A stretch of DNA of 64,000 nucleotides, from positions 27,959 through 91,958 of IMG/VR virus record IMGVR_UViG_3300032235_000776, one strand, 5' to 3'. This DNA is from a virus. Numbering within the stretch: the stretch's first letter is position 1; every line of letters begins with the position of its first letter. The notes under the pieces were generated by a model. The model was not told where the DNA came from. It saw only the letters and a program-made list of their open reading frames with translations, and searched no databases. The position numbers and the translations under genes are program-made. Below, piece after piece: positions 1,425 to 43,600 of this stretch.

Positions 1425-1693
1425 TGAGTGCTAAATCAGAATTATATAGCAAAGTAAGTTGTTGTTTTGCAAAGCAAGTTTACTACATGTATCAACAAAA
1501 AAGATACGGAATAAACTATTGTAATAAAGTAGATAAGGATAAAATTCATTCAACAAATCGTTTAATGAATTTATTTAAATTTAAAACTGCTTTTCAACCA
1601 GAATGCTTCTTGGATAACTTTAACACCTATGATTACAAACCAGACGATGTTTGTAACATGGCCACAATAATTGAGAAAATAAATACACTATGA
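1424..1693 (+). CDS. Small structural protein (gene-74-like position)
   Basis: 89-aa ORF translationally coupled on both sides (TAATG, ATGA); RYGI motif; Cys-containing. Confidence 0.5.
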   Translation: MSAKSELYSKVSCCFAKQVYYMYQQKRYGINYCNKVDKDKIHSTNRLMNLFKFKTAFQPECFLDNFNTYDYKPDDVCNMATIIEKINTL

Positions 1694-3654: not shown

Positions 3655-3677
3655 TAATTAAAATAAAATAAAATAAA

Positions 3678-16400: not shown

Positions 16401-16685
16401 CTTGCAGGTAAGTTTGTTCCTAACCCAATTGATTTACAAGAATTTAAAAAGGGTGGAATGATTAAGCGTGCAGATGGTTCATATTCTAAAAGAGGATTAT
16501 GGGATAATATCAGAGCTAACAAAGGTTCCGGTAAAAAGCCAACCAAAGAAATGCTTAAGCAAGAAAGAAAAATTAAAAAAGGTTACAAAGCAGGAGGTGA
16601 ATACATGGAAGGTAATGAGTATGAAATCTCTGGAGTAGAATTAGAAAGATTAAGATCTTTAGGATACGATGTAGAAATAATATGA
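13488..16685 (+). CDS. Modular putative internal (cargo) virion protein: GG-delimited modules incl. permuted papain-like domain and peptidoglycan-binding domain
   Basis: 1065 aa. Repeated xxGG motifs, GHIEA...WNLLTNNC, DGIMGPETQTAL (PG_binding_1-like) and basic mini-modules. Confidence 0.65.
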   Translation: MKKLKREIPKNYSFLDLVAPSYNRVKITPKFVEGGGTPIKMTEPTMFMPPQSLNSGQPALLNSTNEFDWNKQRLIDPGNALWNEHKKLYPNHKDGSKYHEYFLCNLNPDMCGGPNPQFRNIRNSQNPEIQQLVNELDPLFDKPDKNYSYTLEQALSSRARQYYNKEVGLDADEVLNKLNKTNLTSDQQQKLQRLYDLSLKDSGNEIVYNPKETNPYAQYTVNWKSPSQWNYQNKAAKFYNDQEAFATGMDAWNNRNLNTDTVPNIQAPVVNTPTPITPKVNPINLPQMQFPNMQSSNLEPIDDTRNTSLRDFNPFGTPQITPQVPNTIATNKTTYPISLPNSPLNPNYKPPVNSGFSMTNPYDSSKTYAGDWLNRFKETERNNNPELSQDEIDRITAEDNALNNIIDSNYGFNSSSMPRVNENISNNQLANLPNQNQWSNLQEPLPVQRPSEYADPQQAIIGSIKTDFKPADPASATLEKTKDKTDSTKGFNYKRAARVGAFNAGLNLAGNMYNMSRMRNQENFNSFITQQPEAIYPNKRMLYGDKSMFAEYGGEFIKYEGGGSWTDYLNPMNWGVEDYSEYSKFANAYRTAKSNGKEEFLWNGKRYNTKYAGTPRQEIGMYGANGKKVSPKQMNNPYLVNYYTPKLGYYLPGHIEAANREGYAVNNSSNGNSSFGIDPAYEPHKGKSSYFVYGADSAKFRNTVSNLPMGDYQYLFDEEELKANKFNTGKSTWNLLTNNCADGVCDAFGIPKSGKVTHPVSTLSKISNKYPTLNITGRDMETYENKIKEYIKADKNNILKQSEYFLGIVNSPEFVNGNSSYRKKVISAIQDSLHKSGYSLPNSQKSNGTFDGIMGPETQTALQKYNQQSSKKKENGGEYQDEDLIDISHLIQFKKGGIYIKPENKGKFTAWAQSHGMSVQEAASHVMANKEKYSSTTVKRANFAKNASKWKHEDGGQYSYGGHYIPMDVPYLAGKFVPNPIDLQEFKKGGMIKRADGSYSKRGLWDNIRANKGSGKKPTKEMLKQERKIKKGYKAGGEYMEGNEYEISGVELERLRSLGYDVEII

Positions 16686-18910: not shown

Positions 18911-18916
18911 AGAATG

Positions 18917-18948
18917 CTTGGAATACTGAGGTATTTTCCGTATCTTTA
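18917..18948 (+). promoter_or_regulatory. Near-consensus Bacteroidota-type promoter
   Basis: CTTG (18917-18920), 20-nt spacer, TATCTTTA (18941-18948), in an intergenic gap before ATG 18994. Confidence 0.55.
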
Positions 18949-18993
18949 ATTATAATTATTTACCCATAAAAATAAATAATAAAAATTATTAAA

Positions 18994-20982: not shown

Positions 20983-20984
20983 AA

Positions 20985-23972
20985 ATGGCATCATTCGTAC
21001 CACCTCAAGTAGATCATAATTTATATACACCAATTCTGCCACAGGATAATGTGATGCAGATATTTAGTTTGTTGGATCAAAAGCAACAATTTTATAATCA
21101 AGGTGTTAAAGCAGCTCAGACTAAAATATCTTCAATGCTATCTCTGGAAAAAGATGTTACATCTGAACCAGTAAAAAACATGGTAACTGATTTTAATACT
21201 AAAGCAAATGATCTAATTAAACAATATTCAAATCTTGATTTTTCATTACAGGGTAATGTACAGTTAATTGATAATATCTACGATCCATTATTAGATAATG
21301 AAGTATTTTTAAATGATTACACTGCTACTAAAAATTATAATACACAAGCTCAGAGAGCACTTAGTTACAAAGATTCAACAGATGAAAAAACCAGAAATCT
21401 TTTTAATCAAAAAAATCTTGACATACTAGATATTAAAAGACAAGATTTGGCAGGGGCAAAAACTGAAAAAGATATTAAAGTATATTCTGCTAGACTTGCA
21501 AATACTTCATATACACCATATTACGATTACAATGCTGAGTTAATGGGATATATGAAAGATAACAAGGATATGTTTGAAATGGTAAGAGATGAAAGATCCG
21601 GGGGAGTTATAATAAGTCATAAAAATGGACCACAAAGATATGAGTCCCTTAAATCTTTTGTGGATACTTATCTATCTGATAAAGCCAGAAATCAAATTGA
21701 AATTGAAGAAAGTGTGAATTTTGCAAATTCATTAAGATCTTCAGGATTAACTAAAGAACAATTTTTAAATCAAACTATAACAAATTCCAAAGAGTCTTTA
21801 GAACAAGAAACTCTTCAAAAACAAAAAGAAGTTGATCAAGTTTCTGATTTATTAAAGTCTTATCCTAAAACTAATTTAAATACTAAACAACAAGCTGAAG
21901 TAAATCAGTTAAATGAAATGCTTCAAAAGAGAACTAGCCTACTTGAAAAAAGTCAATCAGTACTTTCTAACTTTAATAACTTCATGCAAAAAGCTACAAA
22001 TGGTGAAGTAGAATTATCTAGATATTATGATGTAGCAGAAAATCTGGTAGTGACTGATAGTATAGAAAAGAAAATAAATAATCTGGCTTATGGTTTAGTT
22101 GGTCCGGAAAGTATTACTATAGCAAGTGATGTAGCATATTGGGAAGGTGTAAAAGAAAGTAGATTAATGAAAGATCTATTACATACAATTGATAATGATG
22201 CTATAAAAAATACTTTAGACGCTAAAAGATTACTTTTAGATGCAGCTAAAGAAGGATTAGTATGGGATCCTAAAACAGAAAGTTATTTACCATCTACATA
22301 TGGAATTACTCAAAGTTTTTATGGAGCATCAACAGCTGAACAAGGTGTAATAACTCCAACAACAACAGACTCTTATAACTCTTCTTTAGAAGAGATAAAT
22401 AATACTCAAAGAGATAATACTATAGAATCTACTATGAAAATAGTAGAGGCACAAGCTTTAGCAAAAAACACTCCTTTAAATAATAGTGAGTTATTATTAT
22501 TAAGAAAAGTAATTACTGAAAATCCTTTAAATACTTCTATTGTAGAGTTGTATAAAAAATATGCTAATGATCAGAGTATAAGATCAGTGTTAACTAAATC
22601 AGGAATAGGCCAAACTAAATTCTTAAAAAATAATTTAGGTGGAGTTTTATCGGGATTAGTTACAGATGCTGAAAATTATGTAAAAAATACTAGTAGAGAT
22701 CAATCTGGTAGTAACGCTGGTAATTATGATTTATTAAACAAAACTTTATCAGATCATTCTATTAAATCTAAAATGATTGATATTGAAAAAACAATTTTAG
22801 TAGATGCATTAAAAAAAGATGTCGAAGAATTTGAAAAACAATTTCCGGAATATAAAGGTAATTTAAAAGTTGATGAAAATGGAAAAATAGTTGTACTTGA
22901 TGAAGATAAAGAAAACGATATAAATCCTATTTTATACTCTCCAACTCCAGCTTATGAATTAGCTAATACAGCTTTAAATTTTTTATTTCCAAAAATACCA
23001 AAAAATACAACTCAAAAATTTAACGAATTCTTAAAAACTCAAAAAGGAGCACTCGGTAATGTTGGAAAATATATGCAAAATACAATTGCTTCTGAACAAG
23101 GTACATTTGATTGGTTAGCTCAAAATAAACAACTATATCTTAATAATCCGGAAAACTATCAATTAACTGAAGAAGAGTATAATATAAGTAACTATAAAAA
23201 AGATGCAGCAGCCTACTGGGACACTGAGTCTACAGAAAGAAATGTATTAAATAGTATTCAAGATCAGTTTTTACAAAGTATTGGCGATGAAAGATTTAAA
23301 CTTGGAAATAAAAACTTAATGTCTGTAGGTTCAAAAGTTATAGAAAGATCAGGATCTACAACTGTATACCCTACAATATCTTATTTAAGATATATTTTTG
23401 GATTAACAGATGCAGAAGGAAAAGCATTAGACATCGAAAGAACTGGAATAGTAGATGATGATAGTTTTGATAAAATGCTGACTGCAGTTTCAAAATATGG
23501 TGTTACTATAAAAACCCCGGGAACTAAAAACAAAAATTCTTTAAATATGCAAACGTATTTAAATGCTGGAAATATAATAGATTTGTCAAAATCTAATGCA
23601 GGTTCAACTGTAGATTTTAAATTAGCACAATCTTCAAATAAAAATAGTTACGCAGTTGAAGGAAAATTTAAATCAGAAGATGACTTTTTCTTTGATAGAT
23701 CATATTTTTATACTGCGGATCCAAATACTAACACTATAAAACCTTATTCTTCACAAGCTAATTATTATAAATTTGATTTAGCTCCTGGACAGTTGGATGA
23801 AAGTATTATTCCACCACTTAACGAAGGAATTGATACTCAGTTATTTTATAATCAAAAAAAGAATAATACAAATACAGTAAGTAATTTTATTAATTACTTA
23901 AAACAAAAAAATATATCTACTGATAAAATTAGTGGAGCAATAATTATGGATTATTTAATTTCACTAAAATAA
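20985..23972 (+). CDS. Putative ejected/cargo virion protein
   Basis: 995 aa, helical/coiled-coil, no Cys seen; YTPYYDY motif; immediately upstream of the giant-protein block. Confidence 0.55.
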   Translation: MASFVPPQVDHNLYTPILPQDNVMQIFSLLDQKQQFYNQGVKAAQTKISSMLSLEKDVTSEPVKNMVTDFNTKANDLIKQYSNLDFSLQGNVQLIDNIYDPLLDNEVFLNDYTATKNYNTQAQRALSYKDSTDEKTRNLFNQKNLDILDIKRQDLAGAKTEKDIKVYSARLANTSYTPYYDYNAELMGYMKDNKDMFEMVRDERSGGVIISHKNGPQRYESLKSFVDTYLSDKARNQIEIEESVNFANSLRSSGLTKEQFLNQTITNSKESLEQETLQKQKEVDQVSDLLKSYPKTNLNTKQQAEVNQLNEMLQKRTSLLEKSQSVLSNFNNFMQKATNGEVELSRYYDVAENLVVTDSIEKKINNLAYGLVGPESITIASDVAYWEGVKESRLMKDLLHTIDNDAIKNTLDAKRLLLDAAKEGLVWDPKTESYLPSTYGITQSFYGASTAEQGVITPTTTDSYNSSLEEINNTQRDNTIESTMKIVEAQALAKNTPLNNSELLLLRKVITENPLNTSIVELYKKYANDQSIRSVLTKSGIGQTKFLKNNLGGVLSGLVTDAENYVKNTSRDQSGSNAGNYDLLNKTLSDHSIKSKMIDIEKTILVDALKKDVEEFEKQFPEYKGNLKVDENGKIVVLDEDKENDINPILYSPTPAYELANTALNFLFPKIPKNTTQKFNEFLKTQKGALGNVGKYMQNTIASEQGTFDWLAQNKQLYLNNPENYQLTEEEYNISNYKKDAAAYWDTESTERNVLNSIQDQFLQSIGDERFKLGNKNLMSVGSKVIERSGSTTVYPTISYLRYIFGLTDAEGKALDIERTGIVDDDSFDKMLTAVSKYGVTIKTPGTKNKNSLNMQTYLNAGNIIDLSKSNAGSTVDFKLAQSSNKNSYAVEGKFKSEDDFFFDRSYFYTADPNTNTIKPYSSQANYYKFDLAPGQLDESIIPPLNEGIDTQLFYNQKKNNTNTVSNFINYLKQKNISTDKISGAIIMDYLISLK

Positions 23973-29900: not shown

Positions 29901-31899
29901 TACTATCATAGATAATACAATCCTTGGTAAAAATTTAACTGACTTAAAAAATAAAGACCTTAAGTTTATTAAAGTATTAAAGCTAAGAAACAATCTAACA
30001 AAAGAAGAATCTTTTATAAATCAATTTGAATTTAAAAATAATTATTCTACAGAACCAATTGTAGCTATTGCAAGTCCGGAAGATTTAAAGAAAGAAAAAG
30101 AAAATCAGTCACAAGAAGACGAATTCAATAGATTACCATTTGATTTATTTACTACAATAAGTAATGATGATGATATCTTCTTTATACAAGCTGGAGCAAG
30201 AAGAGAAAGAAAAGAAGTAGTTGATGAGAATGCTGCAGTAGGAAGATTAGTAGTTCAAAGATTAGCAGAACAATATAGTACTGAATCAGATAATGATGCT
30301 AAAATAAAATTTGAAACTCCTTCTTATGATGACCCTGAATCTCCATTCTATTTACAGCCAGGTGTTTCAAATCCTAATGTACCGGAAAGAATACAAGAGT
30401 TTATACTAGAAAAACTTAATGGTAAGAAATTCAGTGAGTTAAGTCCCGAGGAATTAAAAGAAATAAAAACATTCTTTGGTAAAACAGGTGCCATGGTAGA
30501 TAATGTAGGAAACTATATAACCTATGATAAAAATGGTTTCCCAAATAAAAATGGAATAATTCCAATGTTCTTTGTTCCTAAAGGAGAATTAAAAATATCA
30601 GGAGACAGTATTTCTTATGGTGGAAGAGAGTTAGTACCTATTTCTAAAATGAGTAAGAAATTAGATATGACAGAAGAAGAGGTTAAACAAAGAGCCAAAA
30701 CACAAGCTGCTTTCTTAGATAAATTGCATTCAAATGAAAAGCCTGATTATATTACTATATCAAATATATCACAGGGAGTAAAGAACCCTGAAGATACTTT
30801 AACATATGAAGATGTAAAAAGATTTGATGAAGAATCAAAACTAAAATTTGAAATGTCCAGAACTAAAAAGGAAAAAGGACAAATCTATATGAATTTAAAT
30901 GGAAGTACTACTAAATTAGAACAAAAAGCTATTGGAGAAGATGTAGCTCTTGCTATACTTGCATATCTTGGAGTTGAAGATGGTTATTTCTTAAGTAGAG
31001 GATTTAAAGTTGGTAAAGGAATAAAATCTCGTTACTCTGAGTTATTGAAGAAGGTAAATAATGCAAGTAATAACTTAGAGAAATTTAAAGCCAAAAAAGA
31101 ATATGTAGATTTCTTAAATAGAACCTTATTTACCGGTCTAAAAAACTTTAACGTATTATTTGATGTATATTTCATGATGGATAGTAATCCAGAAATCTTT
31201 GATGCTATTTCTTTAATGGATTATAACACAGATAAAACATCTAAAGAAGGTATTCCAAATTTATTTGAAATAGGTAATACTTGGAAAAGAGTAAATAATA
31301 ATAAAAATAATGACGATTATTATTCGTATCTTGATACTGTGACAAGTATGCTCTCAAAATTAGTTTTTGATACTAGCCCTGATTTTGTAGAATCAACTTA
31401 TAATGATAACTTTGTAACTAAGAACGAGACATTAAACATTGAAAAAGTTTACGTAAAAGAATACCTAATGGAAAAATATTCAGTAAACGGAATCATTGTA
31501 AATGACTCTTTATTAAACTCAATGAATAGATATTTATATTTAAAACCACGTATAGACGAAGAGGTATTACCTACAGAACCAGTTAATTTTGAAGAACTAG
31601 ATCTTGAATCAATGATCAATAGTCTAATAGATGCAGAAATGAAATCTGAGTTACCATCAAGAAAAGCTATTTCAAAAGAAGTAAAAACTTCTGCAAGAAA
31701 TGAAGAATTACCTGCTACAGATGATTTTAAAAATAAAGCAATGTCTGAAATTAGAAATGCATTAAAAGCAGTAAATGCTATATTACCAGAAGCAGAATCT
31801 AAAAAGATGAAGTCAGAAATTAAGAAGGCTAAGACTATGTCAGATGTAAACAAAATTAAAATGGAGATTTTTGAAAGATATAATTGTAAAATAAAATGA
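23974..31899 (+). CDS. Giant ejected virion protein 1 (RNAP-associated block)
   Basis: 2641 aa. Gly/Ala-rich hydrophobic N-terminal region with SEGLEESAQG motif typical of phage ejection proteins; long charged coiled coils. Confidence 0.7.
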   Translation: MDFLELPKNNSGIVESADKKGLGLNDILSKPLTKEQILNNPYAVIPLNKIEGVGRYLNSSTYNKLGFSFDPDLDTKYYKETPWYKQVGNATGQFFGQAGAAFDAQFSKLEQIKETFGTTDGDYLKDAFQASEDLREKYPVFKSSNETYGILGYIPFVGDSFSKWTNFIPNLGFTAGTLGGVFLENAVATAIIEATTGGLGTPLATSKWVKDLYSGIKSIKSFNDIKKMATFAKVGEGIYEAEKVLGSAGNIVRGVEAIKAGKSLKGSLHSIYGSYQLYSSAAAEALIENANSVGEVMKDFKTDFIDKNGREPNGEELARMQESAEGLILPSSLGNIGILMASNALQEMNAFKAGKSLSSFAISGSGKVGEAVGKKVIFDKTTGLYRDRLASEITKGKWLSAGRFLLGVGSEGLEESAQGVVAEATKNYFKAKYYNKPIGWTDALGQGFAYAASDQGMEEFWAGVVTGGLFSGGGKAINQYQFRKDEKALFKKTGKTIDQLAQDERKDLNEEVIPLLKYSLATSQSSENVKVQTVVQQKMNEAYSQGKQLQGDIYRGQGLNKAMFTAKYYGKDQELLNHYKELNKLERSDLAKYLNVEENQLASPEEFEETIKDLEFLSASIDRAAKKVPNPGKKVNISDPKYANMDPKEMQEAYIKDSVMFEAWQGAQELLVAQEFLLYKTKNKYKNLKLDLESTNVSLDLLAAVMSRDDETSALQKKLFFLQTRLEETDEKLKTQKNKKELKNLKTDKEELTKEIDEIKEKVKGDLPSNPTINYITELTKRIQEKTQSLQSLKEAEKTKDPLYTQYLEEIRNLQEEFLIVADERLSQEEKLTRINELRPDDKKFKFNREDLLRESNVNNLNDVINAFDLLGELKETIDYSEDVIGNLSSPEKMQKYGALMFDRIYRARKELFSNILAGKTSEDIEEEDEIISETEVKEKTKEKKKAPFKPGNKVIYQEKEYTLDKIEFKDGESTYILKDEKDNVVRVTDASELSTVEDKEKLSDIESLVITEENYNNWSNVRDRSDYDAFVEQVKYTLGQFDKVQDKSKITPETVEEMLSSVKAFSNKAIRDKVIPLIVAKYGAKETSVEEELVTLEKQPIETKEELSQEEKMHNEILSALANALDEAAFTGARKLTEEEKALEQEIIKTIQAKYGIKEKTPEQKLNFLNNNEGRVVKINGIQGVLTKVNENLFELETPNRIYELSPEDIKTFEQGSKPKSLAKYKVKNVTETEVVVNDVKYKINTDTKGNIISLSPENKPTQEIKNEKLLIAVEIERNKKKVADTTKTNQRVDKLESLYPTLNKMLDKMWDVNMTDTIAVALDKLYDNKPITESEALQTAIWLKDVFERIAEFIKPSNTKEENDVILEAYNIAEGINSLLYDNNNITTNYEENSKTATDVEEVKSNVSTKRDPSRNRRKNKVEETTEKEKGQKEKLIESLKQAKELVSKIKDLKVDLKEIFTLIKKRSYNSWKNSLDSDKLTLDLEDVALPWNDQAANDIEITKYLINRYIETELNMLGESGLGEKKEEEVIKTEPGNSGNLNVSDALETLDPVSKEDEKEPIKTKEDFILELAQKIADKIGQGKKYRFTKVEKEFYENNKNEINYLVEQLTNPVIESKEEEITKESFIDLFNKLLLISGKSIDKDSNPIYSILRRIKFSIADSWFKFKTKEVSYNLKKVLEKLSKTYTNVTFNNIPKKYFSKGEETQGAETYVNRIVNKNVQKEYDEFKLFEHQHSLHLDITKENTEAIMNILMDFANNNDVYILIGSAYNIARPDNIRIYSKGEKISTEKLDELLSRFTTLTSSTIDNPVINDIQYERLPSTQELIDFLKTVDEDIKEQILNYLGLYEKDRDFLKKGSRKDYKNGLSLNSLASAKILVKAYNKFKQTGKLNNRDIIEPVIKQQLKKAAFYGEVSDLYNELLSNDIFKQISNTDYFKSLVEEAKAKMDKLSVFNFANRTLSIGTVLYDKDNEYTIIDNTILGKNLTDLKNKDLKFIKVLKLRNNLTKEESFINQFEFKNNYSTEPIVAIASPEDLKKEKENQSQEDEFNRLPFDLFTTISNDDDIFFIQAGARRERKEVVDENAAVGRLVVQRLAEQYSTESDNDAKIKFETPSYDDPESPFYLQPGVSNPNVPERIQEFILEKLNGKKFSELSPEELKEIKTFFGKTGAMVDNVGNYITYDKNGFPNKNGIIPMFFVPKGELKISGDSISYGGRELVPISKMSKKLDMTEEEVKQRAKTQAAFLDKLHSNEKPDYITISNISQGVKNPEDTLTYEDVKRFDEESKLKFEMSRTKKEKGQIYMNLNGSTTKLEQKAIGEDVALAILAYLGVEDGYFLSRGFKVGKGIKSRYSELLKKVNNASNNLEKFKAKKEYVDFLNRTLFTGLKNFNVLFDVYFMMDSNPEIFDAISLMDYNTDKTSKEGIPNLFEIGNTWKRVNNNKNNDDYYSYLDTVTSMLSKLVFDTSPDFVESTYNDNFVTKNETLNIEKVYVKEYLMEKYSVNGIIVNDSLLNSMNRYLYLKPRIDEEVLPTEPVNFEELDLESMINSLIDAEMKSELPSRKAISKEVKTSARNEELPATDDFKNKAMSEIRNALKAVNAILPEAESKKMKSEIKKAKTMSDVNKIKMEIFERYNCKIK

Positions 31900-34800
31900 G
31901 TTTAAATTGTATAAGCGCAGATCAGATTAAAGATCTTGAAATAAAATATGGAATAACAAATTTAAGTATATTTTCTACTTTAACTCAAATAGAATTACTT
32001 GATGATTATTTAGGTAAGGTATCTTTAAAAGATATAAAAGAAAAAGAAAAAGAAGCAGTAAGAAAAAATCTAAGAGAAGATATACTTGATTTACTTAATG
32101 CATTAAATTCTAATGTTGAAGGAGAATCTACATCTATTAATAAAAATAGTTTTTATGTTCAATTAAAAACAGGAACTGAGGATAAAGATGTAGAAAAAGG
32201 ATTTAGTAGATTTGATCTAGGTGATTTCTCTGAGATGTTTAACTCTGCTTTTATATCTCTATATAATTCAGCATCTTTATTTCAATTGTTAAATGATGAA
32301 AAGAAAGCTGCAGGAGTAAAAAGATCAGAGTTTAAAAATGAAAACTTAACTAAAGTATTTTATAAGTTTTTAAAGCAAATAGATGAAATTACTAAGAAAG
32401 AGAATATATTTAGATTAAATGCTATTAAAGAAGTATTTAAGAACGAGGATGCTCCCTTTAAAAATTATGAAAAAGATGTTGAGACTAAGATGTTCTATGT
32501 AGAACAGGTCTTTCCATTTATGATTGATTTTCTTAGAATGTATTATCAAGAATACTTTAAACCAAATATTTGGGCCCCAAAATTTGCAGAAGCAAAAGTG
32601 GGTAATGCAGCAAATAGTACTATTGATGAACTTGTAAGAATAAACCCAGAGTTTGGTGCTTTATCTAGAAGTAAAGATATTCTTGTAGGAACAAATAGAG
32701 CCTTTATTGAGTTAGAAGAAGAACTATCTAAAAAGGGTCTAACAGTAGAAAAGAAGATAGAAATCATAAACAACTCTCCTTTTAATAAAGTTGCAGATGT
32801 ATTAATGGAGGCTTTCAGGTATAATGACAAGTCTTTTGGAGGAATGCAAGATGTTAATAGTGAGGAAATTGCAGAGACAGATGAGGAAAATAATATTCAA
32901 TCTTCTGATGATACTAAAATTACTAGAGAAGGATTCTCTTCTTCTGGTAATGAAAAATCAGGTTTTGATTCTGCAAGCAGTGAAACAAAATTAGTATTAT
33001 CTTCTTTATTTGATATTGGTCCGGAAGGAATGGTTACTGATATCTATGGACTTCCAACATTATTAAATGAAGTAGATACTTTTAAACAATTAAGCAAGCT
33101 ACTGAGAGGTAAAATAGATTACTCAGTTTTCTATAAAACTCTTCAAGAAAATAGAGAAAAGTATCCATTTATTAAACAATTACTTAGTGATTATTTACCA
33201 ATTGATCCATCTAAAGATATTGAAGAATTCTTTGATGATCCAAAATATAATGACAGTAAAAGAAAGTATTTATATAGAGTTAAACAGGCTTTCTTACAGG
33301 ACCTATCTAAGGATAGATTAGAGGCTAAGGAGATCAATTTATTCTTAAAAAAGAAATGGAAGAAAAACGGAACTTCTTATAATGCAATTAGAGCAGAAGT
33401 AAATAACGCTAAACAGAAAACACAAGTTTCCATAAAAAGAGATGCAACTACTCGTTTCCACCAAAAATATTTTAAAGAGAAACAAAAAGTATTTGGGGAA
33501 GCACTAGTAGGTAGTAATCAAAAAATAAGATTAGAGACTTTAGTAAAAGCGGCTTTAAAGTTTAAAAAAGTAAGTACTCAGTCCCTGGATGACATAAACT
33601 TAAAAGATGTGCTAGATATACTAGCTGTTTTTGGTATTGTACCTTCTAGAAGTGTAAAATCATTAAGAGGTATAAAGAGATTAATAACCGAAGAGAAAAA
33701 GGGTAAAAAAAGCATAGAAAGATTTTTTAGTTTACTACCACTTGAAGATAACTCCTTGTTTAAAGCAATAGTCACGGATACAAGTAAAAAAAGAATACCA
33801 GAAGAAGTAAAGTATTTACAAAAAATAATTTTATCAAAAATAAAAGAATTTGAGAATAAACCTCAAAGTCTAGAAAATACTCAAGATCTTATTGCTGCCT
33901 TAAAGAATCCAGAGTTTATAAATGCAACTCTTAAATCATTAAAGGTAATAGAAGAAACAAATAATTATACTCTTCAAAATGCAATTAATACAAATAACAA
34001 AGTTAAATCATTAGTTGAAGGGTATATAACCTTAATAACAGATAGATTTATAGATAGTAAAAAAATATCTTCATCCAAAGAAAAAGGTAAGATATCTTTA
34101 ACTGCAAAAGAATTAGAAAATAACTTACTTGATGAATTTGAAGCACTAAATAGAAGAGAGTTAAATGATGAGCTTACAAATAAAATTTCTTCAGCTGAAG
34201 AAGCAGACAAACTATTTGATAAACTTACAAACTTAACAGACCCTATGAATCAATTACAAGACATCATGGATGGATTGTATAAAAGTTATTATGCTTTGGA
34301 AGGTGATTACGTATTAGAAGATGATGGTATTACAGATTTTTCCGGTAAACCAAGGCACTTAATTCAATCTCTTAATAACTTAAAAATTAAAGAAAACGAT
34401 TTAAATGAAAGAAGTAATAAATTATTAGTTCGTTTCCCTGAGTTGGACCCTAAAAGAAATCCTTTAATTAAGAGTTCTTTTATATTTAATTTACTTTATG
34501 ATATTGATGCTGATGGAAATATAAAACCAAAATCCCAAAGCAATCTTAAAATAAGTATTAACAGTATCTTAGGGGTTAAATTAGAAAGTAAAGATGTAAA
34601 CTCTGGAGGATTATCCATTAATAGTCAGTATGAACAGGACCAAATATTATCTTCAATGATATTATTGTTATTTAATGGTCACGAAGAAAGTATGAACGTA
34701 GATAAAGAAGCTGCGTATAACATATTATTTAAAGGATTGAATCCTACTGAATATCTTGGTACTACTGAAAAAGTCACAATGACAAAAGACTTTTTACCAA

Positions 34801-37800
34801 TACCTTCTTCTATTATTTCCAATTTTTTTACCGGAGTATCCGTGGAAGAATTACAAAGTGATAAAACTATAAAGGTTAAAAAGTATTTAAATTATGCTAA
34901 GGGTAACAAAGGGTTAAAAGCAATTGAACCAATTGCAGGATTGTATAAAAACTACTTAACTCACTATCTATTAATGTATTATAAAATTGAAAAAGGAGAT
35001 TTACAATATGTTAAAGATGAATATGAAAATTTAGGTAAAAACTATAAAGGCTTAGGATTATTCGAAAAAGATAGTTCTAAAGATCCTAAAAACTATATAA
35101 TTGATGCTAAATTAAAAGAACAACTGAAACAATCAGTACTAGAATTAAATTTAGAAGGTAAATCTTTAGGTGAGATGACTCAAGAAATTGAGAATGTAAT
35201 TCTTAATTCAAAAGGTAAAACCAAAACAAAAAGTGGCTACATGGATTTCCAACAAGGATTATTTAACCACTTTGTAAATCAAGTAGAAGATTTAGTTGAT
35301 TCTTTAAGAACATACTCTAAAAATTATAGTGAACTTGACAATCTAATAAAACTATTTGAAGGAAATGGAAGTGAAGATGCCAAAAATCCTCTACCATATA
35401 TAAGCGATCTTATAGATACTGCAGATGGTTTTAGACCGGATAATACATCTTTATTAAAAGGATTATTACTAAACTATATAGTTAACTATGAAATATTAGC
35501 TCAGGAAAAACTGTTATTATTTTATGGTGACCCAATGTTTTTAAAAGAGTCATCCTATGTTAAAAGAGCAAGTTCTCCTGGCTCTACAGGTACGTTTGCT
35601 AATTTAGATCAATGGGATCTAGATTATTTTAACAATCCTAAAAATAAATCAGCATTTGCATTTGCTAAAGCATTAAATGAAAAATTAATAAAGGAAAAGA
35701 AAACTCCTTTAAATATGGACCTTCATAAACTAGATTATAAGTTTAGATATGGCCAAGTGGAAGATAATATTATAAAGTCTGCAGTTTATAATCAATTATT
35801 AGATGGGTTTAAACAATCCATTAAACAAAGATTTGGTGATAAATTTAGTGAAAAAGAAATTGATGAAAAAGCCAAAGTAGCTTTAGCAGCATATAATAAA
35901 CTAAATGAAGCGGATGGTTATGGAGTTATAACTTTAGATTGGTATAAGATACTTTCTGAATTAACAAAAACTTGGGGACCAGAACAAGATTATGTTTATG
36001 ACTTACTAGCAGCCGGAAAAGAAGTTCCTTACTCTTTATTATCAGTTACATTCCCAGTTAGAAAGTTCCAGTATACTGGATCTATATTTAAAGATGATCA
36101 AGCTATTCCAGCAGATGGATTGCATAAATTTTCACTTGCTCCTATATTACCGGGCTCAGATAATAATTTACAAACAAAAGCTGAGAACTTAATGAAAGAA
36201 GGAAAGGCCTATGAGATCTTTTCAAGTGCAAATAAAAAAGAAAAACTTTTAAATCCAAGTGGTGAAAAAGATTACTTTTATGATGGGAATCAGACAGATA
36301 GAATAATTAAACCATTAGAAGCCAGAAAAGTAAATGGTAAAATGGTTTATGACTCAGGTAAACAAGTTATTTATGGTGTTACTAACTTAATAAAAGACCA
36401 AGTACATATTGATACTGCAGTAAAAGATAAAGTTATCTTAGCAAGACAGTTAAAACGTGTTGGTAAAACTGACTTATTTGAAAATGGTATCCCATTTGAC
36501 TTTAAAGGTAATGAAAAAAGTGCATTACCATTAAAACAACAATGGGATTCACTTACTCAAAAACAAAAGAAAAATGCTTCTAAGACATATAAAATTTATA
36601 GAGGTATTGTAGATGATATAAGTAGTTTAATTGAGATTGAGCAAAATAACATTTTAGAACAATTAGGTTTTGAAATGACTGAAGAAAATGGAAAAACAAA
36701 GATTAATCTAATTCCTGGAGTAGGTAGACAAAAACTAATTGATACTCTTAAAAAGGAATTAAGAAAGAGAACTGTCCAGCAAAAATCAGGAAGTGGAAAT
36801 GTTTATTTAAAATTACTCAGTATTGAATCTAAAAATAAAGACGTTGAATTAGAAGCATTTGTAAACCAAAAAACTCTCAAGAGTATAATGGTATCTATTA
36901 TAAATAAAAATACTCGCTTTAGAAAATTCAATGGATCTAACTTAATTCAGGCTCCAGTAACCGGTATGGAATCAGCTTCTTTTACAAAAGATAATATTGG
37001 AGTTGATCAAACAGGTTACCTTAAAACATATACTTATGGAGAAAATGTTAATTCTGAAAGAATACAACAATTAGAAAAAGAAAAACAAGCTGAGTTAGAT
37101 GCTACAAAATCAAAAAATAAAAGAGCAGAAATAACTGAATTATATGATGCTAAAATAAATGCCTTAAAAGCAACTAGAATGTCTGAGGTAATGATGACCT
37201 TTACTCCAGAATGGGAATACTTATTAGGGTTATATCATAAGGGTTATGAAATCGGTACATTGGAAAATCTCAATAAAATTATAAGAACTGATAAAGAATG
37301 GGTAGAAGAGAACAAAGATAAATTAAGTATATTAGCAGTAAGGATTCCTATTCAAGATCCAAACTCAATTGAGGCATTTATAGTAAAAGAATTTCTACCA
37401 ATGTCAGTAGGTGCTAAAATTGTAGTTCCATCTGAAATCGTAGCTAAATCCGGGGGTGACTTTGACATTGATAAACTTATGGTTTATTACTATAATGTAG
37501 ATAAAGAAACTGGTGAAATACCATTTGATAACAGTACTGCAGGTTTAGAAAATAGAATCATAAAAGGTTACCTAGACTTGTTACTTTTACCAGAAATGTT
37601 CTACAAACTTATAACAGCTAATAGTATTGCTGTTTTAAAGGATGAAGAAAAAGATGAAAATGATAATACTCCTAATGGACAAATTGTAGATGAATTAAAT
37701 TATTATAAAGGCCAAAGTATTCTTAGATATGATAATACAGATTTAAGAATGCCTTTGTTTAACTTAAGGCAAAAAACAATTTTACAAATTGCGAAGAAAT

Positions 37801-40598
37801 TACTTGGGCATGCTGCTACTATACGTTCAAACTTTGAAGAATTAAAACATGCCGGGTTAACACTTGCAGATGCATATCGTGTAACTCTATATAAAGGATT
37901 AACTAAAAAAGAAAGAAAGTTAATTAAAGATAATGTGTTACTAGAGTCTTTGACAAAAATTGAAAATACAAAATCTAAAATTAGGCTTCCATTTATAATG
38001 GAAGATGGGTCACTCGCATATAATACTACTGAAGAAAATAAAATAAATGTATCTGAATCATTCAATAAAGATAATGTATCTATTACTGAGATTATATCAG
38101 CTGTAATGAACGGGTTAGTTGACGTAGCAAGTAAACCATGGATTGTTATCTTCAGTATGAATGAAGAGTTAACTTCATATAACTTCCTAATGCTTTTATC
38201 CGGTGTACCTGCTAGAATGGTATTTAAAGTTAATAATCAAAGGATTATAAAAGACTTTATTGATAATAAATTGGCTTTAAAACAATCTTTATATAAGAGA
38301 ATATTAAACCAAAATAACTCTCAGAAAACAAGTAGATTATTAGAAGATACTTTTATAAATATTATAGAAGAGCATGTAACTATAAAAAATGGTAAAAGAG
38401 AACTTAGTTTGGATAACTTACAAAAGTTAGAGAATTCATTTAGAGAATTAGGGGCATCTGATACAAAAGATAAATACATATTTGATTATTTAAATACGTA
38501 TATCAAAACAGATGCAAATAAAGAAGCAAAAGAAGTAAATGACTTAGTATTCAGAACAAATATAGAATCTTTTTTATTTGACTTACAAAATAACTTAGAT
38601 GAAAGTAAATTCTTAACTGATAAAGAATTGACTACTACTCTTAATAAAACCTATGCTGAAATGAGTAAAGAAGAGTTGGGTAATCAAATTAAGTTATTAG
38701 CCTTTACTCTATTCATGAAACCAGTAGGAGAAGGCCTAACAAGTGCTTTAGAAGCAATTGATTATGATAAAACTCAAAGTGAAAACATACATGATGAGTA
38801 CACTAAAGTGAGTAATTTAAAATTAATTAAATCAAAGGGTTACTTTGATAAAAAATCTTTTACTAGCTTACAAAACTTACATATTGCTCGACCATATAAT
38901 TTGTCAAATCTGACAAAAGCAGCAGCAAGTATAGTTGCTCCTATAACAGAAAACAGTCAGATTAATAAATTTGCAATATCCCTGGCCAAATTACTTAAGA
39001 AAAAATTCTTTATAGTATCGGATAAAGAAGATTCGTTAATTAACTCGTTTAAATCTGACTTTATAAATTACATAGTACAAAACTTTGGTACTATTGAAGG
39101 GTTAGACAAAGATGGTAAATCTACCGGTAAAGAAAATATTGTTGAATACTTTATCAAAAACGGTGTTTTTATTGATAAAAGAGTAGAGTCTTATTCTGGT
39201 AAAGAATACTTATCTACTAAAATAGAAGATAAATCACTACCAAATCAATTGTTTACATTGATTGAGACCTTTGATAAATTTAATTCTTTAGATGTCTTTT
39301 CAAATTATTTAATTCCAGTAAAAGGAAAAAAGATAGAAAATTCAGAAGAAGACGAACAAGACACACTTGATTATATTTACAAAGTAGGTAGGATCTTTAG
39401 AAACTTAAACCCTTCAGAATTAGATAATTACAATAAACAAATTAAAACATTTGGACAAACAAATATCAATATCAAAGATGTTTTATTTGCAATTGAACAA
39501 AATGGCCCTGAAGTATTAGAAAAGTACGTATCAGAAGATAACATTTCTTTTGATGATGTTTATAATACTTTAAAAGATTTACAGTCTAAATATAAATTAG
39601 GTAGTTTTTCAAACATAACTAATGGTATCTTAAACAAAGAAGCTCCCGAGATTAACAAACTTTTAGTTGATTTTAAAAGGAAAGCAAATCAAGTTAAGAA
39701 TGATGTATCTTATTTACTACCATATTTAAGTTTATTACAGTCTACTGCCTTGTATTCTACTGCCTCTATAACAAATATGTTTGTTAGTGATAACTACAAA
39801 ATTGCTAAAGACGCAATTGTTAACTTTAGAAATGAAGTTAATATTAATAATCCAGATGAATTTTTAGATTTACTTAAGAACTTTACTGTATTATTTTTAA
39901 TAAATAACATTAAGTTACTTACTTCAGATAAGAGAGTAGAACTTTTAAAAATGATAGCCGGTAGAGATGCATTAACAAATACTAGAAATGACTTTGACGA
40001 AAATGCTATTATTACAAACTCAAACTATTTTAACAACTATTATAAGAAAATCTTTTCTATAATGGACAGAAATAGTAACTTTGCTGAAGCAGATAATATT
40101 ATCGAACTAATACGTACAGAAGGTATGGAAGAATCTTTCCTTTATGAGTTTTTAGAATTAAAACCATCTGAAATTCTGGAAGAAGATACAAATGACGATG
40201 TTGATGATATAGATGTAATAGAAACTCAATTTGAAATTGGAGATGAAAATAAAGAACCAGATGAAGAAGTATTTAATGTAGTTAATTTGCGAAATAATAG
40301 CTATGTTATATCAGTAAGTGACCAAGAAGTAAAAGATTTGGATGGTAAAAGAATAACAGGTAATCTTAAAAATGAAGTACTTGCAAACTATTATAGTTCA
40401 ATAGATCAATTAAAGATTTCACATGTAGGAGATGATATGTACTATATAGCAGGTAGTAAAATAATGAAAGTTACTGAAGATAAAGAAACTGGTACCTACA
40501 CTTATAAAAATATAAAACCAAATATTGCAGAAAGAAGTAAAATACTTGATCTAGCATTTGAGCATACTCTAAAACCTTGTAACACAAAAACCTCGTAA
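31896..40598 (+). CDS. Virion-packaged single-chain DNA-dependent RNA polymerase (crAss-like two-barrel RNAP)
   Basis: 2900 aa. RIPIQ...IVVPSEIVAKSGGDFDIDKL with catalytic DxDxD at 37458-37472. Upstream DGYGVI and LHKFS beta-like motifs. Confidence 0.9.
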   Translation: MSLNCISADQIKDLEIKYGITNLSIFSTLTQIELLDDYLGKVSLKDIKEKEKEAVRKNLREDILDLLNALNSNVEGESTSINKNSFYVQLKTGTEDKDVEKGFSRFDLGDFSEMFNSAFISLYNSASLFQLLNDEKKAAGVKRSEFKNENLTKVFYKFLKQIDEITKKENIFRLNAIKEVFKNEDAPFKNYEKDVETKMFYVEQVFPFMIDFLRMYYQEYFKPNIWAPKFAEAKVGNAANSTIDELVRINPEFGALSRSKDILVGTNRAFIELEEELSKKGLTVEKKIEIINNSPFNKVADVLMEAFRYNDKSFGGMQDVNSEEIAETDEENNIQSSDDTKITREGFSSSGNEKSGFDSASSETKLVLSSLFDIGPEGMVTDIYGLPTLLNEVDTFKQLSKLLRGKIDYSVFYKTLQENREKYPFIKQLLSDYLPIDPSKDIEEFFDDPKYNDSKRKYLYRVKQAFLQDLSKDRLEAKEINLFLKKKWKKNGTSYNAIRAEVNNAKQKTQVSIKRDATTRFHQKYFKEKQKVFGEALVGSNQKIRLETLVKAALKFKKVSTQSLDDINLKDVLDILAVFGIVPSRSVKSLRGIKRLITEEKKGKKSIERFFSLLPLEDNSLFKAIVTDTSKKRIPEEVKYLQKIILSKIKEFENKPQSLENTQDLIAALKNPEFINATLKSLKVIEETNNYTLQNAINTNNKVKSLVEGYITLITDRFIDSKKISSSKEKGKISLTAKELENNLLDEFEALNRRELNDELTNKISSAEEADKLFDKLTNLTDPMNQLQDIMDGLYKSYYALEGDYVLEDDGITDFSGKPRHLIQSLNNLKIKENDLNERSNKLLVRFPELDPKRNPLIKSSFIFNLLYDIDADGNIKPKSQSNLKISINSILGVKLESKDVNSGGLSINSQYEQDQILSSMILLLFNGHEESMNVDKEAAYNILFKGLNPTEYLGTTEKVTMTKDFLPIPSSIISNFFTGVSVEELQSDKTIKVKKYLNYAKGNKGLKAIEPIAGLYKNYLTHYLLMYYKIEKGDLQYVKDEYENLGKNYKGLGLFEKDSSKDPKNYIIDAKLKEQLKQSVLELNLEGKSLGEMTQEIENVILNSKGKTKTKSGYMDFQQGLFNHFVNQVEDLVDSLRTYSKNYSELDNLIKLFEGNGSEDAKNPLPYISDLIDTADGFRPDNTSLLKGLLLNYIVNYEILAQEKLLLFYGDPMFLKESSYVKRASSPGSTGTFANLDQWDLDYFNNPKNKSAFAFAKALNEKLIKEKKTPLNMDLHKLDYKFRYGQVEDNIIKSAVYNQLLDGFKQSIKQRFGDKFSEKEIDEKAKVALAAYNKLNEADGYGVITLDWYKILSELTKTWGPEQDYVYDLLAAGKEVPYSLLSVTFPVRKFQYTGSIFKDDQAIPADGLHKFSLAPILPGSDNNLQTKAENLMKEGKAYEIFSSANKKEKLLNPSGEKDYFYDGNQTDRIIKPLEARKVNGKMVYDSGKQVIYGVTNLIKDQVHIDTAVKDKVILARQLKRVGKTDLFENGIPFDFKGNEKSALPLKQQWDSLTQKQKKNASKTYKIYRGIVDDISSLIEIEQNNILEQLGFEMTEENGKTKINLIPGVGRQKLIDTLKKELRKRTVQQKSGSGNVYLKLLSIESKNKDVELEAFVNQKTLKSIMVSIINKNTRFRKFNGSNLIQAPVTGMESASFTKDNIGVDQTGYLKTYTYGENVNSERIQQLEKEKQAELDATKSKNKRAEITELYDAKINALKATRMSEVMMTFTPEWEYLLGLYHKGYEIGTLENLNKIIRTDKEWVEENKDKLSILAVRIPIQDPNSIEAFIVKEFLPMSVGAKIVVPSEIVAKSGGDFDIDKLMVYYYNVDKETGEIPFDNSTAGLENRIIKGYLDLLLLPEMFYKLITANSIAVLKDEEKDENDNTPNGQIVDELNYYKGQSILRYDNTDLRMPLFNLRQKTILQIAKKLLGHAATIRSNFEELKHAGLTLADAYRVTLYKGLTKKERKLIKDNVLLESLTKIENTKSKIRLPFIMEDGSLAYNTTEENKINVSESFNKDNVSITEIISAVMNGLVDVASKPWIVIFSMNEELTSYNFLMLLSGVPARMVFKVNNQRIIKDFIDNKLALKQSLYKRILNQNNSQKTSRLLEDTFINIIEEHVTIKNGKRELSLDNLQKLENSFRELGASDTKDKYIFDYLNTYIKTDANKEAKEVNDLVFRTNIESFLFDLQNNLDESKFLTDKELTTTLNKTYAEMSKEELGNQIKLLAFTLFMKPVGEGLTSALEAIDYDKTQSENIHDEYTKVSNLKLIKSKGYFDKKSFTSLQNLHIARPYNLSNLTKAAASIVAPITENSQINKFAISLAKLLKKKFFIVSDKEDSLINSFKSDFINYIVQNFGTIEGLDKDGKSTGKENIVEYFIKNGVFIDKRVESYSGKEYLSTKIEDKSLPNQLFTLIETFDKFNSLDVFSNYLIPVKGKKIENSEEDEQDTLDYIYKVGRIFRNLNPSELDNYNKQIKTFGQTNINIKDVLFAIEQNGPEVLEKYVSEDNISFDDVYNTLKDLQSKYKLGSFSNITNGILNKEAPEINKLLVDFKRKANQVKNDVSYLLPYLSLLQSTALYSTASITNMFVSDNYKIAKDAIVNFRNEVNINNPDEFLDLLKNFTVLFLINNIKLLTSDKRVELLKMIAGRDALTNTRNDFDENAIITNSNYFNNYYKKIFSIMDRNSNFAEADNIIELIRTEGMEESFLYEFLELKPSEILEEDTNDDVDDIDVIETQFEIGDENKEPDEEVFNVVNLRNNSYVISVSDQEVKDLDGKRITGNLKNEVLANYYSSIDQLKISHVGDDMYYIAGSKIMKVTEDKETGTYTYKNIKPNIAERSKILDLAFEHTLKPCNTKTS

Positions 40599-40603
40599 CA
40601 CAA

Positions 40604-43600
40604 ATGGCTTGTAAAATAACAATAAAAGAAGGAATCAATAAAAAAATTGACGCAGAAGTTGCTCCAGGAGCAGTATATTCTGAATCTGCTGTTAGAAATT
40701 CTGCAGATAAATTAAATAATTTATGGGGAGAAGAATTAAAAATTGTATCCCCCCATGTATATAATAATGGTGCAGCAACTCTTATAAAAAATGAAGTAAA
40801 TATTAATAGAGCTGTTGAATTAGAATATAATAAACAAATAAGTTCTGAAAAGGGCCTTACTAATACATATGATTTAGAACGTATAAAAAATTCCTCAAGA
40901 GCTGAAGATATTAAGACTATTTTTGACACAAATCCTATAATTGAAAAAGTAGGATCCTTTCAAGATTACTTAAATTTTATTGAGCAAGAATTTCCGGAAA
41001 AATCAATTTCAGATATTGCCACATATAAATACTTAAGTGCCTTTGAGTTATATATGAAAGGTGGATATGAGCAATTTAATCCATTGAATAGTGATTTTTT
41101 TAATATATTAGAAAAATATAATGCTGATTCTATGGGAGTTATACACCCAGAAGATAGAAAAGAGTTTACTTATTCTAAGTTACAAGAAGATCTTAACAAA
41201 GAATTTGGAGATATCTTTGTAGTAAAAGTAAAAGAGGATAATTCTTATTACGTAAGTAGAATAAATTCTGATGAAAACGTAGTAGAAGAAGAAGGTAATA
41301 AAGTAATTTCAAAAGCTTTTTCAACTTCAATAAGTGATGAATCAGGTGTACCTTCACAAGTAGTAAATTTAGCAAATAAACTTGCAAATAGATTTGATGT
41401 TAGAGTAAAAATTATTTCTGAAAAACAAGCCAGAGAAATAAGACCTAATTATAGATCCGGAAGTCAAGGCTTTTACGATCCTGAAACTAACTCTGCTTAC
41501 ATCATATATGAGAGAATGAGTAATACTACTGTATTACACGAGGCTTTTTCTCACCCTTTTTTAATTTATATAAAGCAGAATTACTCAGGTCTATATAAAA
41601 CATTACTAGCAAAAGCAAAAGCAAATTCTAAAGTTGTTTCGGAGGTAAATGCATATTACAGTAAATATCCATCTGATGCAAAGGATATGGAGTATATAAC
41701 CCATGCTATTGATTTAGAGTATAATAATCAATTAGAAGATCAGTCTTTAGTAAAAAGTATTCAAAGATTTTGGGAAAGAATATTAGCCTACATTAAAGAT
41801 GTATTAGGTATAAAACAGGATATCAATAAGTTAACTACTTTTAAAGATTTAGTAAAGTTTGCATTGAATTCAAAAGAAAAGATTGATCTTTCAAATGTTG
41901 AATTAATGGGACTACCTATTATGGACTCATATGTAAATATGAACCAAGATGTTGATATGGACAATATTAATGAGCCAAACCTTGAAAGTAGATCTGTAAT
42001 CGATACTATTAGAGAAGATGTATCAGATACTATAACAAAAATGCATGACTCTGTTCAAAAAATGAAAGAGGCTATAAATAATGGTGAAGTAGAGATAACT
42101 CCTGGGCAAAAAGAACAATTAGATACTATTACTGCTAGAGTAAATACTTTATCAAAAGATCTTTGGAATTATAGTATTACTGAAAAAGTATTAAAAACTG
42201 ATAAAAATCTTTCTACAGCTATACAGTATTTTAGCGGAATTGTAAAAAATACAATTAATTCTGATACAGGTTTAACTCAGATTCAAGAAATGTTAAAATC
42301 AGTTTCTCATATTTCTCAAATTATGGAGGAAGCTCTTGTTTTAACCAGATACATTAAAGATCAAATTAATGTATTACAAGAGTCAGATCTTAAATTAGAA
42401 GAAAAGCAAAGAGGAATCCATCAGTATTATCAAATAATGCAAGCAATGGAATCTTCTTTAAAAGAATTATATGATTTCTATGTAAAAGGCGAAAATAAAG
42501 ATCAAAAAGGTTTAAATCCTGTTGTAGATGTAATAAATGCAATCTTCAGCGATATAAGAAACGTAAAAGATATTCATTCTAAATATGTCTTAGACTACTG
42601 GGCAGAAAGAATTACTACTGCTATAGGCAGTGATGTAAATGAAGTGATTCAGGAAGAAATAAATTATTTAAAAGAAAAAATTAAAGACATTGCTGTTAGA
42701 ATGGAAAGAAGCAATGATCCTAAAAGAAAAGAGTATTTAAATAAAGAAATTACTGAAGTTAATTTAGAAATAGAAAGAAATGAAAAAGCAAAAGTTACAA
42801 AAGAAAATGTAAAAGCTATTATTAACGGGGACTATGGTGATAGTAGTTACTTATATTATAAGTTTATGGCTGCATTTAATAGCCCAGACTTAGTAGTAGC
42901 AGGAGTAGATATGGTAATTGAAAAGTATTTTATGACTGCAAGTGATGATACTTTGATAGCATCTACAAAAATGAATATGCTTCTTAGAGATTTTATGGCC
43001 GCAACTGGCCAAACAGAAGCTGATAAGTTTAATGTAGAAAAATTTTCAAAACCATTAATTAGAAAAGCTATATTAAATGTAGTAAACTATAATACTAAAT
43101 ATTTAAATAAAGTTGATCCAGAAACAGGAGAAGTAACTCAAGAAACAGTATATGAAGAAAATTTAGAAGAAGTTCAAGAGGATGTTCTCTTAAGTAAATT
43201 TATGGTTCAAGAACTGAATGCAAAATTAAAAGAATATCAATTCTATGTGGACCAAGCAAGAAAAAAAGGTAATTCTGCAGAGTTACAAAAAGCTTTAAAA
43301 GACCAGCATGACTTTAGAAAAAAATACTTTATAACCCCTGTAACTGAAGAGTTTGATAAAAGAACAATTAATTCAAATCTAATTACAGAAGAAGATATTA
43401 AAGAGCTCTATGATGAAAGTGGAAATCCCTTATCTCTAAAAACAGATCCAGATTTAGTATATGCAGCAAGAACAGTACTTGCACCTTTATATGAACAACA
43501 AGATGCATTCTTTACAATTGCTATTGCAAGAGTACCAACAGAACTTGAAATAGAAGAATATGAAGAGAATGAAAGAAAAATAAAAGCAGCTGCTTCTTTT

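Follow-up and report, generated by a model that had tools for sequence, protein, structure and literature searches.

Terminal cysteines in three giant putative cargo proteins of a distant crAss-like phage and their possible role in head-to-tail linkage

The RNA polymerases (RNAPs) of the crAss-like phages phi14:2 and crAss001 are packaged in the virion and injected (phi14:2 preprint; PMC10172136). Mass spectrometry has revealed the presence in virions of g067, g066 and g065 of phi14:2 (phi14:2 preprint) and of gp47, gp50 and gp49 of crAss001 (PMC10172136). Here, we describe the distribution of cysteine (Cys) residues in three giant proteins, designated P1, RNAP and P3, which are encoded by a 64,000-nucleotide (nt) stretch of viral DNA (positions 27,959 to 91,958 of the IMG/VR record IMGVR_UViG_3300032235_000776). 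This whole stretch, referred to below as the window, has a G+C content of 30.6% and is derived from a distant crAss-like phage.

Cysteines have attracted attention in several related contexts. In the cyanopodophage A4 (Anabaena phage A-4L), cryo-electron microscopy revealed a disulfide between Cys1715 of gp27 and Cys5 of gp26 in the pre-ejectosome, inside the capsid; the bond was described as stabilizing a pentameric ring, with the C-terminal helix of gp27 placed in a cleft of gp26 (PMC12002296). The virions of crAss001 contain several disulfides elsewhere, in the tail and the portal vertex (PMC10172136). The virion RNAP homologs of N4-like phages contain 0.00075% Cys (Lokareddy et al., PMC11445570), and this suppression has been attributed to the avoidance of disulfides in transit, an idea cited in the same paper. 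In addition, a fused "polyprotein" form of the crAss RNAP block was noted in the phi14:2 preprint, which cites Yutin et al.

Cysteines of P1, RNAP and P3

The three giant proteins are the products of co-directional open reading frames (ORFs) that together encode 7,782 amino acids (aa), and the start codon of RNAP overlaps the stop codon of P1 (ATGA). Direct translation of all three ORFs yields a total of four Cys residues: RNAP has one at either terminus, and the remaining two are located at the C-terminal end of P1 and the N-terminal end of P3 (Table 1). The two outer ends, i.e. the N-terminus of P1 and the C-terminus of P3, contain none. The preliminary description of this DNA had counted four Cys in approximately 7,800 aa and had found the free ends of the first and third proteins devoid of this residue; the count proved exact, and translation confirmed the composition of the free ends.

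The frequency of Cys in the giants is far below that of the surrounding genes. The 31 other ORFs of the window contain 164 Cys in 10,059 aa (1.63%), while no internal Cys occurs in the 7,782 aa of the giants. At the background frequency, approximately 127 Cys would be expected there, and the Poisson probability of finding four or fewer is approximately 9e-49. Given four Cys, the probability that one falls in each inner terminal segment (defined as the first 8 or the last 10 residues) is approximately 4e-11. By the same definition, an N-terminal Cys is present in 2 and a C-terminal Cys in 3 of the 31 other ORFs. The region between positions 16682 and 47329 comprises six consecutive ORFs (10,181 aa in total), whose only Cys residues are the four terminal ones.

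Table 1. Position of the giant ORFs, their cysteine codons and other features of the window.
Feature	Position	Strand	Description
Three consecutive ORFs without Cys	16682..23972	+	742, 662 and 995 aa; directly upstream of the putative chain
P1	23974..31899	+	2641 aa; first member of the putative chain; one Cys, residue 2638; no N-terminal Cys
P1 Cys2638 codon (TGT)	31885..31887	+	4th residue from the C-terminus; context ...YNCKIK
RNAP (predicted virion RNA polymerase)	31896..40598	+	2900 aa; Cys at residues 5 and 2895 only
RNAP Cys5 codon (TGT)	31908..31910	+	context MSLNC
Catalytic motif GGDFDIDK of two-barrel RNAP	37452..37475	+	RNAP residues 1853-1860
RNAP Cys2895 codon (TGT)	40578..40580	+	6th residue from the C-terminus; context ...KPCNTKTS
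P3	40604..47329	+	2241 aa; last member of the putative chain; Cys at residue 3 only
P3 Cys3 codon (TGT)	40610..40612	+	context MAC
Zincin-like motif of P3 (HEAFSH)	41537..41554	+	residues H312-H317
LysM (peptidoglycan-binding) domain of P3	45173..45265	+	residues 1524-1554; Pfam PF01476, E 4e-6, above the curated cut-off

The window RNAP matched, in a tblastn search, RNAP genes in 19 Crassvirales records. It was aligned, as the first sequence, with 37 homologs (alignment A1; 38 sequences, mean column identity 14%), and residues G1853, D1855, D1857, D1859 and K1860 are invariant in this alignment, in agreement with the DFDxD pattern. The A1 profile matches the crystallized RNAP gp66 of phi14:2 (E 1.6e-75) and gp50 of crAss001 (E 4e-54), and by this measure the window RNAP is their ortholog. 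From the orthology and synteny, we infer that it is packaged, injected and engaged in the transcription of early genes. A phmmer comparison of P3 with crAss001 gp49 gave an E value of 6e-25, and the profile of the P3 family (alignment A2, 42 sequences) matches crAss001 gp49 (E 2e-85) and phi14:2 gp65 (E 3e-49), which identifies P3, as judged from these matches, as the ortholog of both. P1 was assigned by its position as the counterpart of phi14:2 gp67 and crAss001 gp47. Neither the giants nor the ORFs upstream of them could be assigned to a family in PHROGs, Pfam revealed nothing beyond the LysM domain of P3, and single-sequence phmmer searches of the PDB gave no match for RNAP or P3.

Conservation of the terminal cysteines and changes in gene organization

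A search of 5.8 billion proteins yielded 59 homologs of the window RNAP (23-52% identity). The great majority of these (53 of 59) contain a Cys at residues 3-6 as well as a Cys within the last 1-9 residues, and 42 of the 53 have no further Cys. The six homologs without one of the terminal Cys mostly look truncated or have doubtful starts. Residues C5 and C2895 of the RNAP are each at least 90% conserved in A1, and C3 of P3 constitutes one of the four invariant columns of A2. All eight P3 homologs examined contain an N-terminal Cys and no C-terminal one, and all five P1 homologs (P0068-P0072) contain a single Cys, located within the last 1-3 residues.

The same distribution was found in the cultured phages. 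In phi14:2, the only Cys of g067 is its last residue, g066 contains Cys3 and Cys2179 (of 2180 residues), and g065 contains Cys3 only. In crAss001, gp47 has a single Cys three residues from its end (...ALRCNS) and gp49 has only Cys5 (MAKKC...), while three Cys are present in gp50, namely Cys5 (MSKRC...), an internal residue and a third located nine residues from the end (...KICGANTLYEL). The P1 and RNAP genes of crAss001 and of the IAS virus are located on opposite strands and the Cys rule is nevertheless kept, which indicates that the rule is a property of the proteins and not of the DNA at gene junctions. A junction signal acting at the nucleotide level was ruled out on the same grounds, since these genes are neither adjacent nor co-directional.

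Many distant RNAP homologs (P0022, P0030, P0031, P0033, P0045 and others) carry extra domains within the same polypeptide, namely an ART-PolyVal ADP-ribosyltransferase, PF08719, PF13532 and DUF7831, and the two terminal Cys are still the sole Cys of these proteins.

A scan of IMG/VR with the single RNAP sequence revealed no relatives, and the loci analyzed below were found by an alignment-based scan. This yielded 80 loci with 74 usable RNAP cores, which form 33 clusters at 50% and 15 clusters at 40% core identity. We scored the junctions adjoining a giant ORF, taking as C-terminal a Cys within the last 10 residues and as N-terminal a Cys within the first 8. Cys was present on both sides of 142 junctions and on neither side of 29, and only five junctions were mismatched. 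Four of the five adjoin small inserted ORFs with internal Cys, and the fifth is located at the chain end in locus L081, beside a 714-aa Cys-containing ORF. The N-terminal Cys occupies residues 3-7 (149 cases) and never residue 2, while the C-terminal Cys lies 1-10 residues (mostly 1-3) from the end. Internal Cys are extremely rare in the giants (32 in 504,881 aa; 0.006%). In every chain, of two to at least five members, the first member lacks an N-terminal Cys, the last member lacks a C-terminal Cys, and the C-terminal and N-terminal Cys are equal in number. The ORFs located downstream of the chain have an ordinary Cys content.

Some recurrent features of the chain members were also noted. Many P3 proteins begin with the motif M-x-x-C-P-N-x-x-S-x-E-W-K, which is lacking in the clade of the window (MACKITIK), and the C-termini of the RNAPs often read D-P-F-K-C. 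Ten loci (L026, L032, L045, L047, L050, L055, L057, L063, L070 and L073) encode, between RNAP and P3, small proteins (165-506 aa) with a Cys at each end and none inside, which appear to be extra chain members. A Pfam search with ten small chain members of related loci gave no match. In L053 and L070, small ORFs (161-229 aa) of ordinary Cys content are situated between chain members; they interrupt the adjacency of the genes, but not the Cys rule, and could represent mobile elements, for example homing endonucleases.

Comparison of loci with different gene organization permitted an analysis of the Cys at points where the polypeptides are joined or broken. Seven loci (L054, L060, L066, L067, L071, L080 and L081) encode a protein of 3,800-4,800 aa with the RNAP motif and without an N-terminal Cys, and in each case a Cys-free ORF precedes it. 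The N-terminus of the L071 protein is homologous to the free-standing P1 of L003, L008 and L061, as well as to the N-terminal regions of the proteins from L060, L066 and L081, and the N-terminus of the L080 protein matches that of L066. By these homologies, the proteins of L060, L066, L071, L080 and L081 are genuine fusions of P1 with RNAP, and their joints contain no Cys. The N-terminus of the L054 protein matches only that of L053 and the N-terminus of the L067 protein has no match, so that these two are classified as fusions by their architecture alone. The 4551-aa protein of cr1_1 displays the same pattern as the fusions.

The reverse situation, in which a polypeptide is divided, was also encountered. 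A 583-aa protein of L008, with a Cys at each end and none inside, can be aligned over its whole length with the undivided P3 of L027 (residues 2-563; E 1e-114), and the L027 protein lacks a Cys at the position of the L008 break. Similarly, a 655-aa protein of L021 corresponds to a segment (residues 3405-3899) of the RNAP of L019 (E 2e-128), a protein free of internal Cys, and a 1326-aa protein of L026, again with a Cys at each end, is a piece of P1. In the small members of L047 (289 aa) and L063 (304 aa), an N-terminus of the P3 type is followed by a C-terminus of the RNAP type. Breaks in the polypeptide are always flanked by a Cys pair, and joints are always without it. The preliminary description had suggested checking whether the terminal Cys are conserved in homologs and whether they are lost where genes are fused. 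Both expectations were borne out: the residues are retained in proteins of only ~20% identity, they are absent from the joints, and in split proteins both new ends gain a Cys.

Proposed linkage and alternative explanations

We propose that P1, RNAP and P3 would be cargo, packed in the capsid and then injected into the host, and that selection would have stripped them of all Cys save the four at the inner ends. In the virion, two inter-protein disulfides (P1 C2638-RNAP C5 and RNAP C2895-P3 C3) would connect P1, RNAP and P3 head to tail, giving a linear, unbranched chain of ~7,800 residues, with an estimated mass of roughly 0.9 MDa. The links being near the ends of the members, the unfolded proteins could pass through the portal and the tail channel one after another, and the lack of any other Cys would preclude cross-links that could jam this passage. 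Thiol reductants of the cytoplasm would then separate the members of the chain.

The components of this proposal are not equally probable. It is likely that the ejected cargo is concatenated head to tail by a Cys-Cys link at each junction. The co-variation of the Cys with gene fusion and fission matches the prediction of a model in which every C-terminus pairs with the N-terminus that follows it, and the analogy with gp27 and gp26 of A4 suggests that the link is a disulfide. The preliminary description had read the Cys pattern as one that joins the three proteins in gene order; the pairing gains support from the conservation and from the fusions and fissions, and the disulfide is argued by analogy with A4 and with the disulfides present elsewhere in crAss001 virions. 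Serial threading of the chain through the tail, with release by reduction in the cytoplasm, is a more tentative suggestion, which we would place slightly below an even chance. The same caution applies to the wider concept of a "terminal cysteine code" valid for the whole order Crassvirales, a concept that has nearly as much to be said for it as against it. According to this concept, internally Cys-free proteins with terminal Cys would be joined as one redox-cleavable thread, drawn through the tail in the order of the genes and parted in the cytoplasm; peptide bonds and disulfides would replace each other as genes fuse or split, and new cargo would join by acquiring a terminal Cys.

Several points weigh against the proposed disulfide-linked thread. 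Virions assemble in a reducing cytoplasm and the gut crassviruses inhabit anoxic environments, which makes the formation of the bond questionable. The strict form of the rule is broken in two phages: the RNAP of the IAS virus (L084) contains 10 Cys, and the fused protein of cr273_1 (L086; 5,794 aa) contains 14, the nearest C-terminal one being located 50 residues from the end, within a low-complexity tail. Additional internal Cys were named in the preliminary description as evidence that would refute its model; these two cases demonstrate that the depletion, although strong, is not absolute. The partners of the individual Cys cannot be assigned from sequence alone, and an inter-cargo disulfide has been observed in no crassvirus to date. 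The crAss001 maps do not resolve the cargo (PMC10172136). Finally, the bond of A4 was described as a stabilizer of a ring and not as a threading device, and the A1 and A2 profiles gave no match to gp26, gp27 or gp28 of A-4L at E<=1, so the likeness between A4 and the crAss-like phages is convergent at best.

Both of the exceptional phages are gut phages. The P3 of cr273_1 keeps its Cys3, and TAG serves as a sense codon in this phage, one gene of which contains 36 TAG in frame.

The description of the A4 bond lends some support to a static role, in which the disulfides are real, but act as staples of the cargo or of a pre-ejectosome in the capsid, aiding co-packaging and stability without any serially ejected thread. 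No sequence feature shows threading, which is also consistent with such a role. A staple could, however, be placed anywhere on the protein surface, whereas the Cys described here are confined, in every lineage, to residues 3-7 and to the last 1-10 residues (mostly 1-3), always link a C-terminus to an N-terminus according to the order of the genes and are accompanied by no other tolerated Cys, which agrees with a need for linearity. The confinement of the Cys to the extreme ends, together with the intolerance of any other, favors the need for a linear, unbranched thread, and we consider a purely static role unlikely. The two roles are compatible with each other. A metal ion (Zn, Cu or Fe) bridging the paired Cys in place of a disulfide is a decidedly weaker candidate. 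Cys thiolates are good ligands, a metal bridge could form in the reducing cytoplasm during assembly, and the residues in front of the C-terminal Cys are often acidic, as in DPFKC and DDLDC; but each terminus provides a single Cys, with no conserved His or second Cys nearby, and the same signature was seen as a disulfide in A4. The more elaborate possibility of a single Zn(Cys)4 knot uniting four termini was excluded, since the total number of Cys (2, 4, 6 or more) tracks the number of junctions.

As the sequences do not assign the partners, a three-member set would permit other pairings, such as a bond between the two Cys of RNAP combined with a P1-P3 link, or the formation of homodimers (P1-P1, P3-P3). 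However, a single rule covers both the two-member sets ([-...C][C...-]) and the chains with four or five members, in which each internal member has both Cys, only when the Cys are paired across the junctions, and homodimers would provide no reason for the exact parity of the Cys or for the Cys-free outer ends. Such pairings are therefore very improbable. We attach still less credence to the view that the terminal Cys are unpaired, each acting alone as a site of modification or as an anchor to the portal or capsid, or being a by-product of nucleotide signals at the junctions. The Cys codons of the window do lie within 20 nt of the gene boundaries. Against this view, the rule is kept where the P1 and RNAP genes are non-adjacent and on opposite strands, the exact position of the Cys varies (residues 3-7; 1-10 from the ends) across lineages of ~20% identity, the two sides of a junction co-vary (142, 29 and 5 junctions, as given above), and the N-terminal Cys are found without the context of a signal peptide or lipobox.

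Three further candidates were rejected. A Cys of the lipoprotein type is incompatible with the lack of a signal peptide and lipobox. Intein- or ligation-type chemistry was dismissed because no domain of intein size is present and in many cases no residue follows the Cys. The Cys are also not remnants of polyprotein cleavage sites, since no Cys marks the joint of the fused proteins.

The crassviruses are the most abundant phages of the human gut, and as podoviruses they must move ~1 MDa of folded protein through a channel of 25-50 Å. A reversible covalent head-to-tail link, if it exists, would provide a mechanism for co-packaging, fixed stoichiometry and serial ejection, and would account for the intolerance of any other Cys in these proteins. 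It would also offer a simple route to loading foreign cargo onto the ejection chain of a phage in laboratory phage-host systems. The Cys rule may serve as an annotation tool, which flags ORFs of injected cargo in uncultured crAss-like genomes and fixes their true starts and ends. It also predicts the order of the cargo, including that of genomes with dispersed cargo genes such as crAss001.

Gene neighborhood and comparison with known systems

P3 contains two further features (Table 1). Its zincin-like motif has the form HE(A/V/G)FSHP in the window and its five closest relatives, and is one residue longer than the canonical HExxH, while the majority of P3 homologs have HEFSHP or HEFAHP; the metal site may thus be altered or inactive in the clade of the window. 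The predicted LysM domain suggests a cell-wall step for the injected P3.

Upstream of the giants, a 1579-aa ORF matches the crAss families of "virion structural proteins" and is probably the muzzle protein. This match brings the gene order into agreement with that of crAss001 (gp44 muzzle, gp45/46 cargo, then the RNAP block). It is probable that the three Cys-free ORFs directly upstream of P1, placed like crAss001 gp45/gp46, encode unlinked cargo or channel-forming ejection proteins. Cys-free upstream ORFs are also present in related loci, as well as in crAss001 (gp46) and cr1_1. Further upstream (861-4856 and 7290-12967), the window contains Cys-rich ORFs (3.5-5.4%), one of which encodes 32 Cys in 654 aa, in sharp contrast to the Cys-free block.

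The most similar known RNAP cargo blocks are those of the cultured crassviruses phi14:2 (g067-g066-g065; Drobysheva et al.) and PhicrAss001 (gp47, gp50 and gp49; Bayfield et al., PMC10172136). Their proteins are predicted orthologs with the same DFDID motif and the same pattern of terminal Cys; the window proteins differ in being larger and share only ~20% identity with them. The word "cysteine" occurs in neither PMC10172136 nor the phi14:2 preprint, and our literature searches revealed no paper describing terminal Cys in crAss cargo proteins. The fused forms of the RNAP block contain the same modules joined by a peptide bond, whereas in the window the modules are encoded by separate genes and the proposed link would be post-translational and reversible.

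The N4-like phages (N4 gp50-52, DEV gp71-73) and T7 (gp15/gp16) share with the crAss-like phages the suppression of Cys in proteins that leave the capsid via the tail. No Cys is present in the sequences of N4 gp50, gp51 and gp52 or T7 gp15 and gp16, which we checked. These systems display depletion alone, without conserved pairs of terminal Cys, while the crAss-like phages add one Cys at each inner end.

The preliminary description had stated that no mechanism of this kind was known. This is not quite right, since A4 provides a structural precedent for one link. In the A-4L genome, gp27 (1717 aa) has a sole Cys1715, the third residue from its end, and the product of the next gene, gp26 (1114 aa), has a sole Cys5. 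The adjacent genes of large ejection proteins thus carry the same single-Cys, C-terminus-to-N-terminus signature as the window. The A4 system differs in that it has one link, compared with the crAss chains of two to at least five members, involves no RNA polymerase, and has a neighboring protein (gp28) that keeps two Cys; moreover, its bond was presented as part of a ring, and neither as a rule nor as a device for threading.

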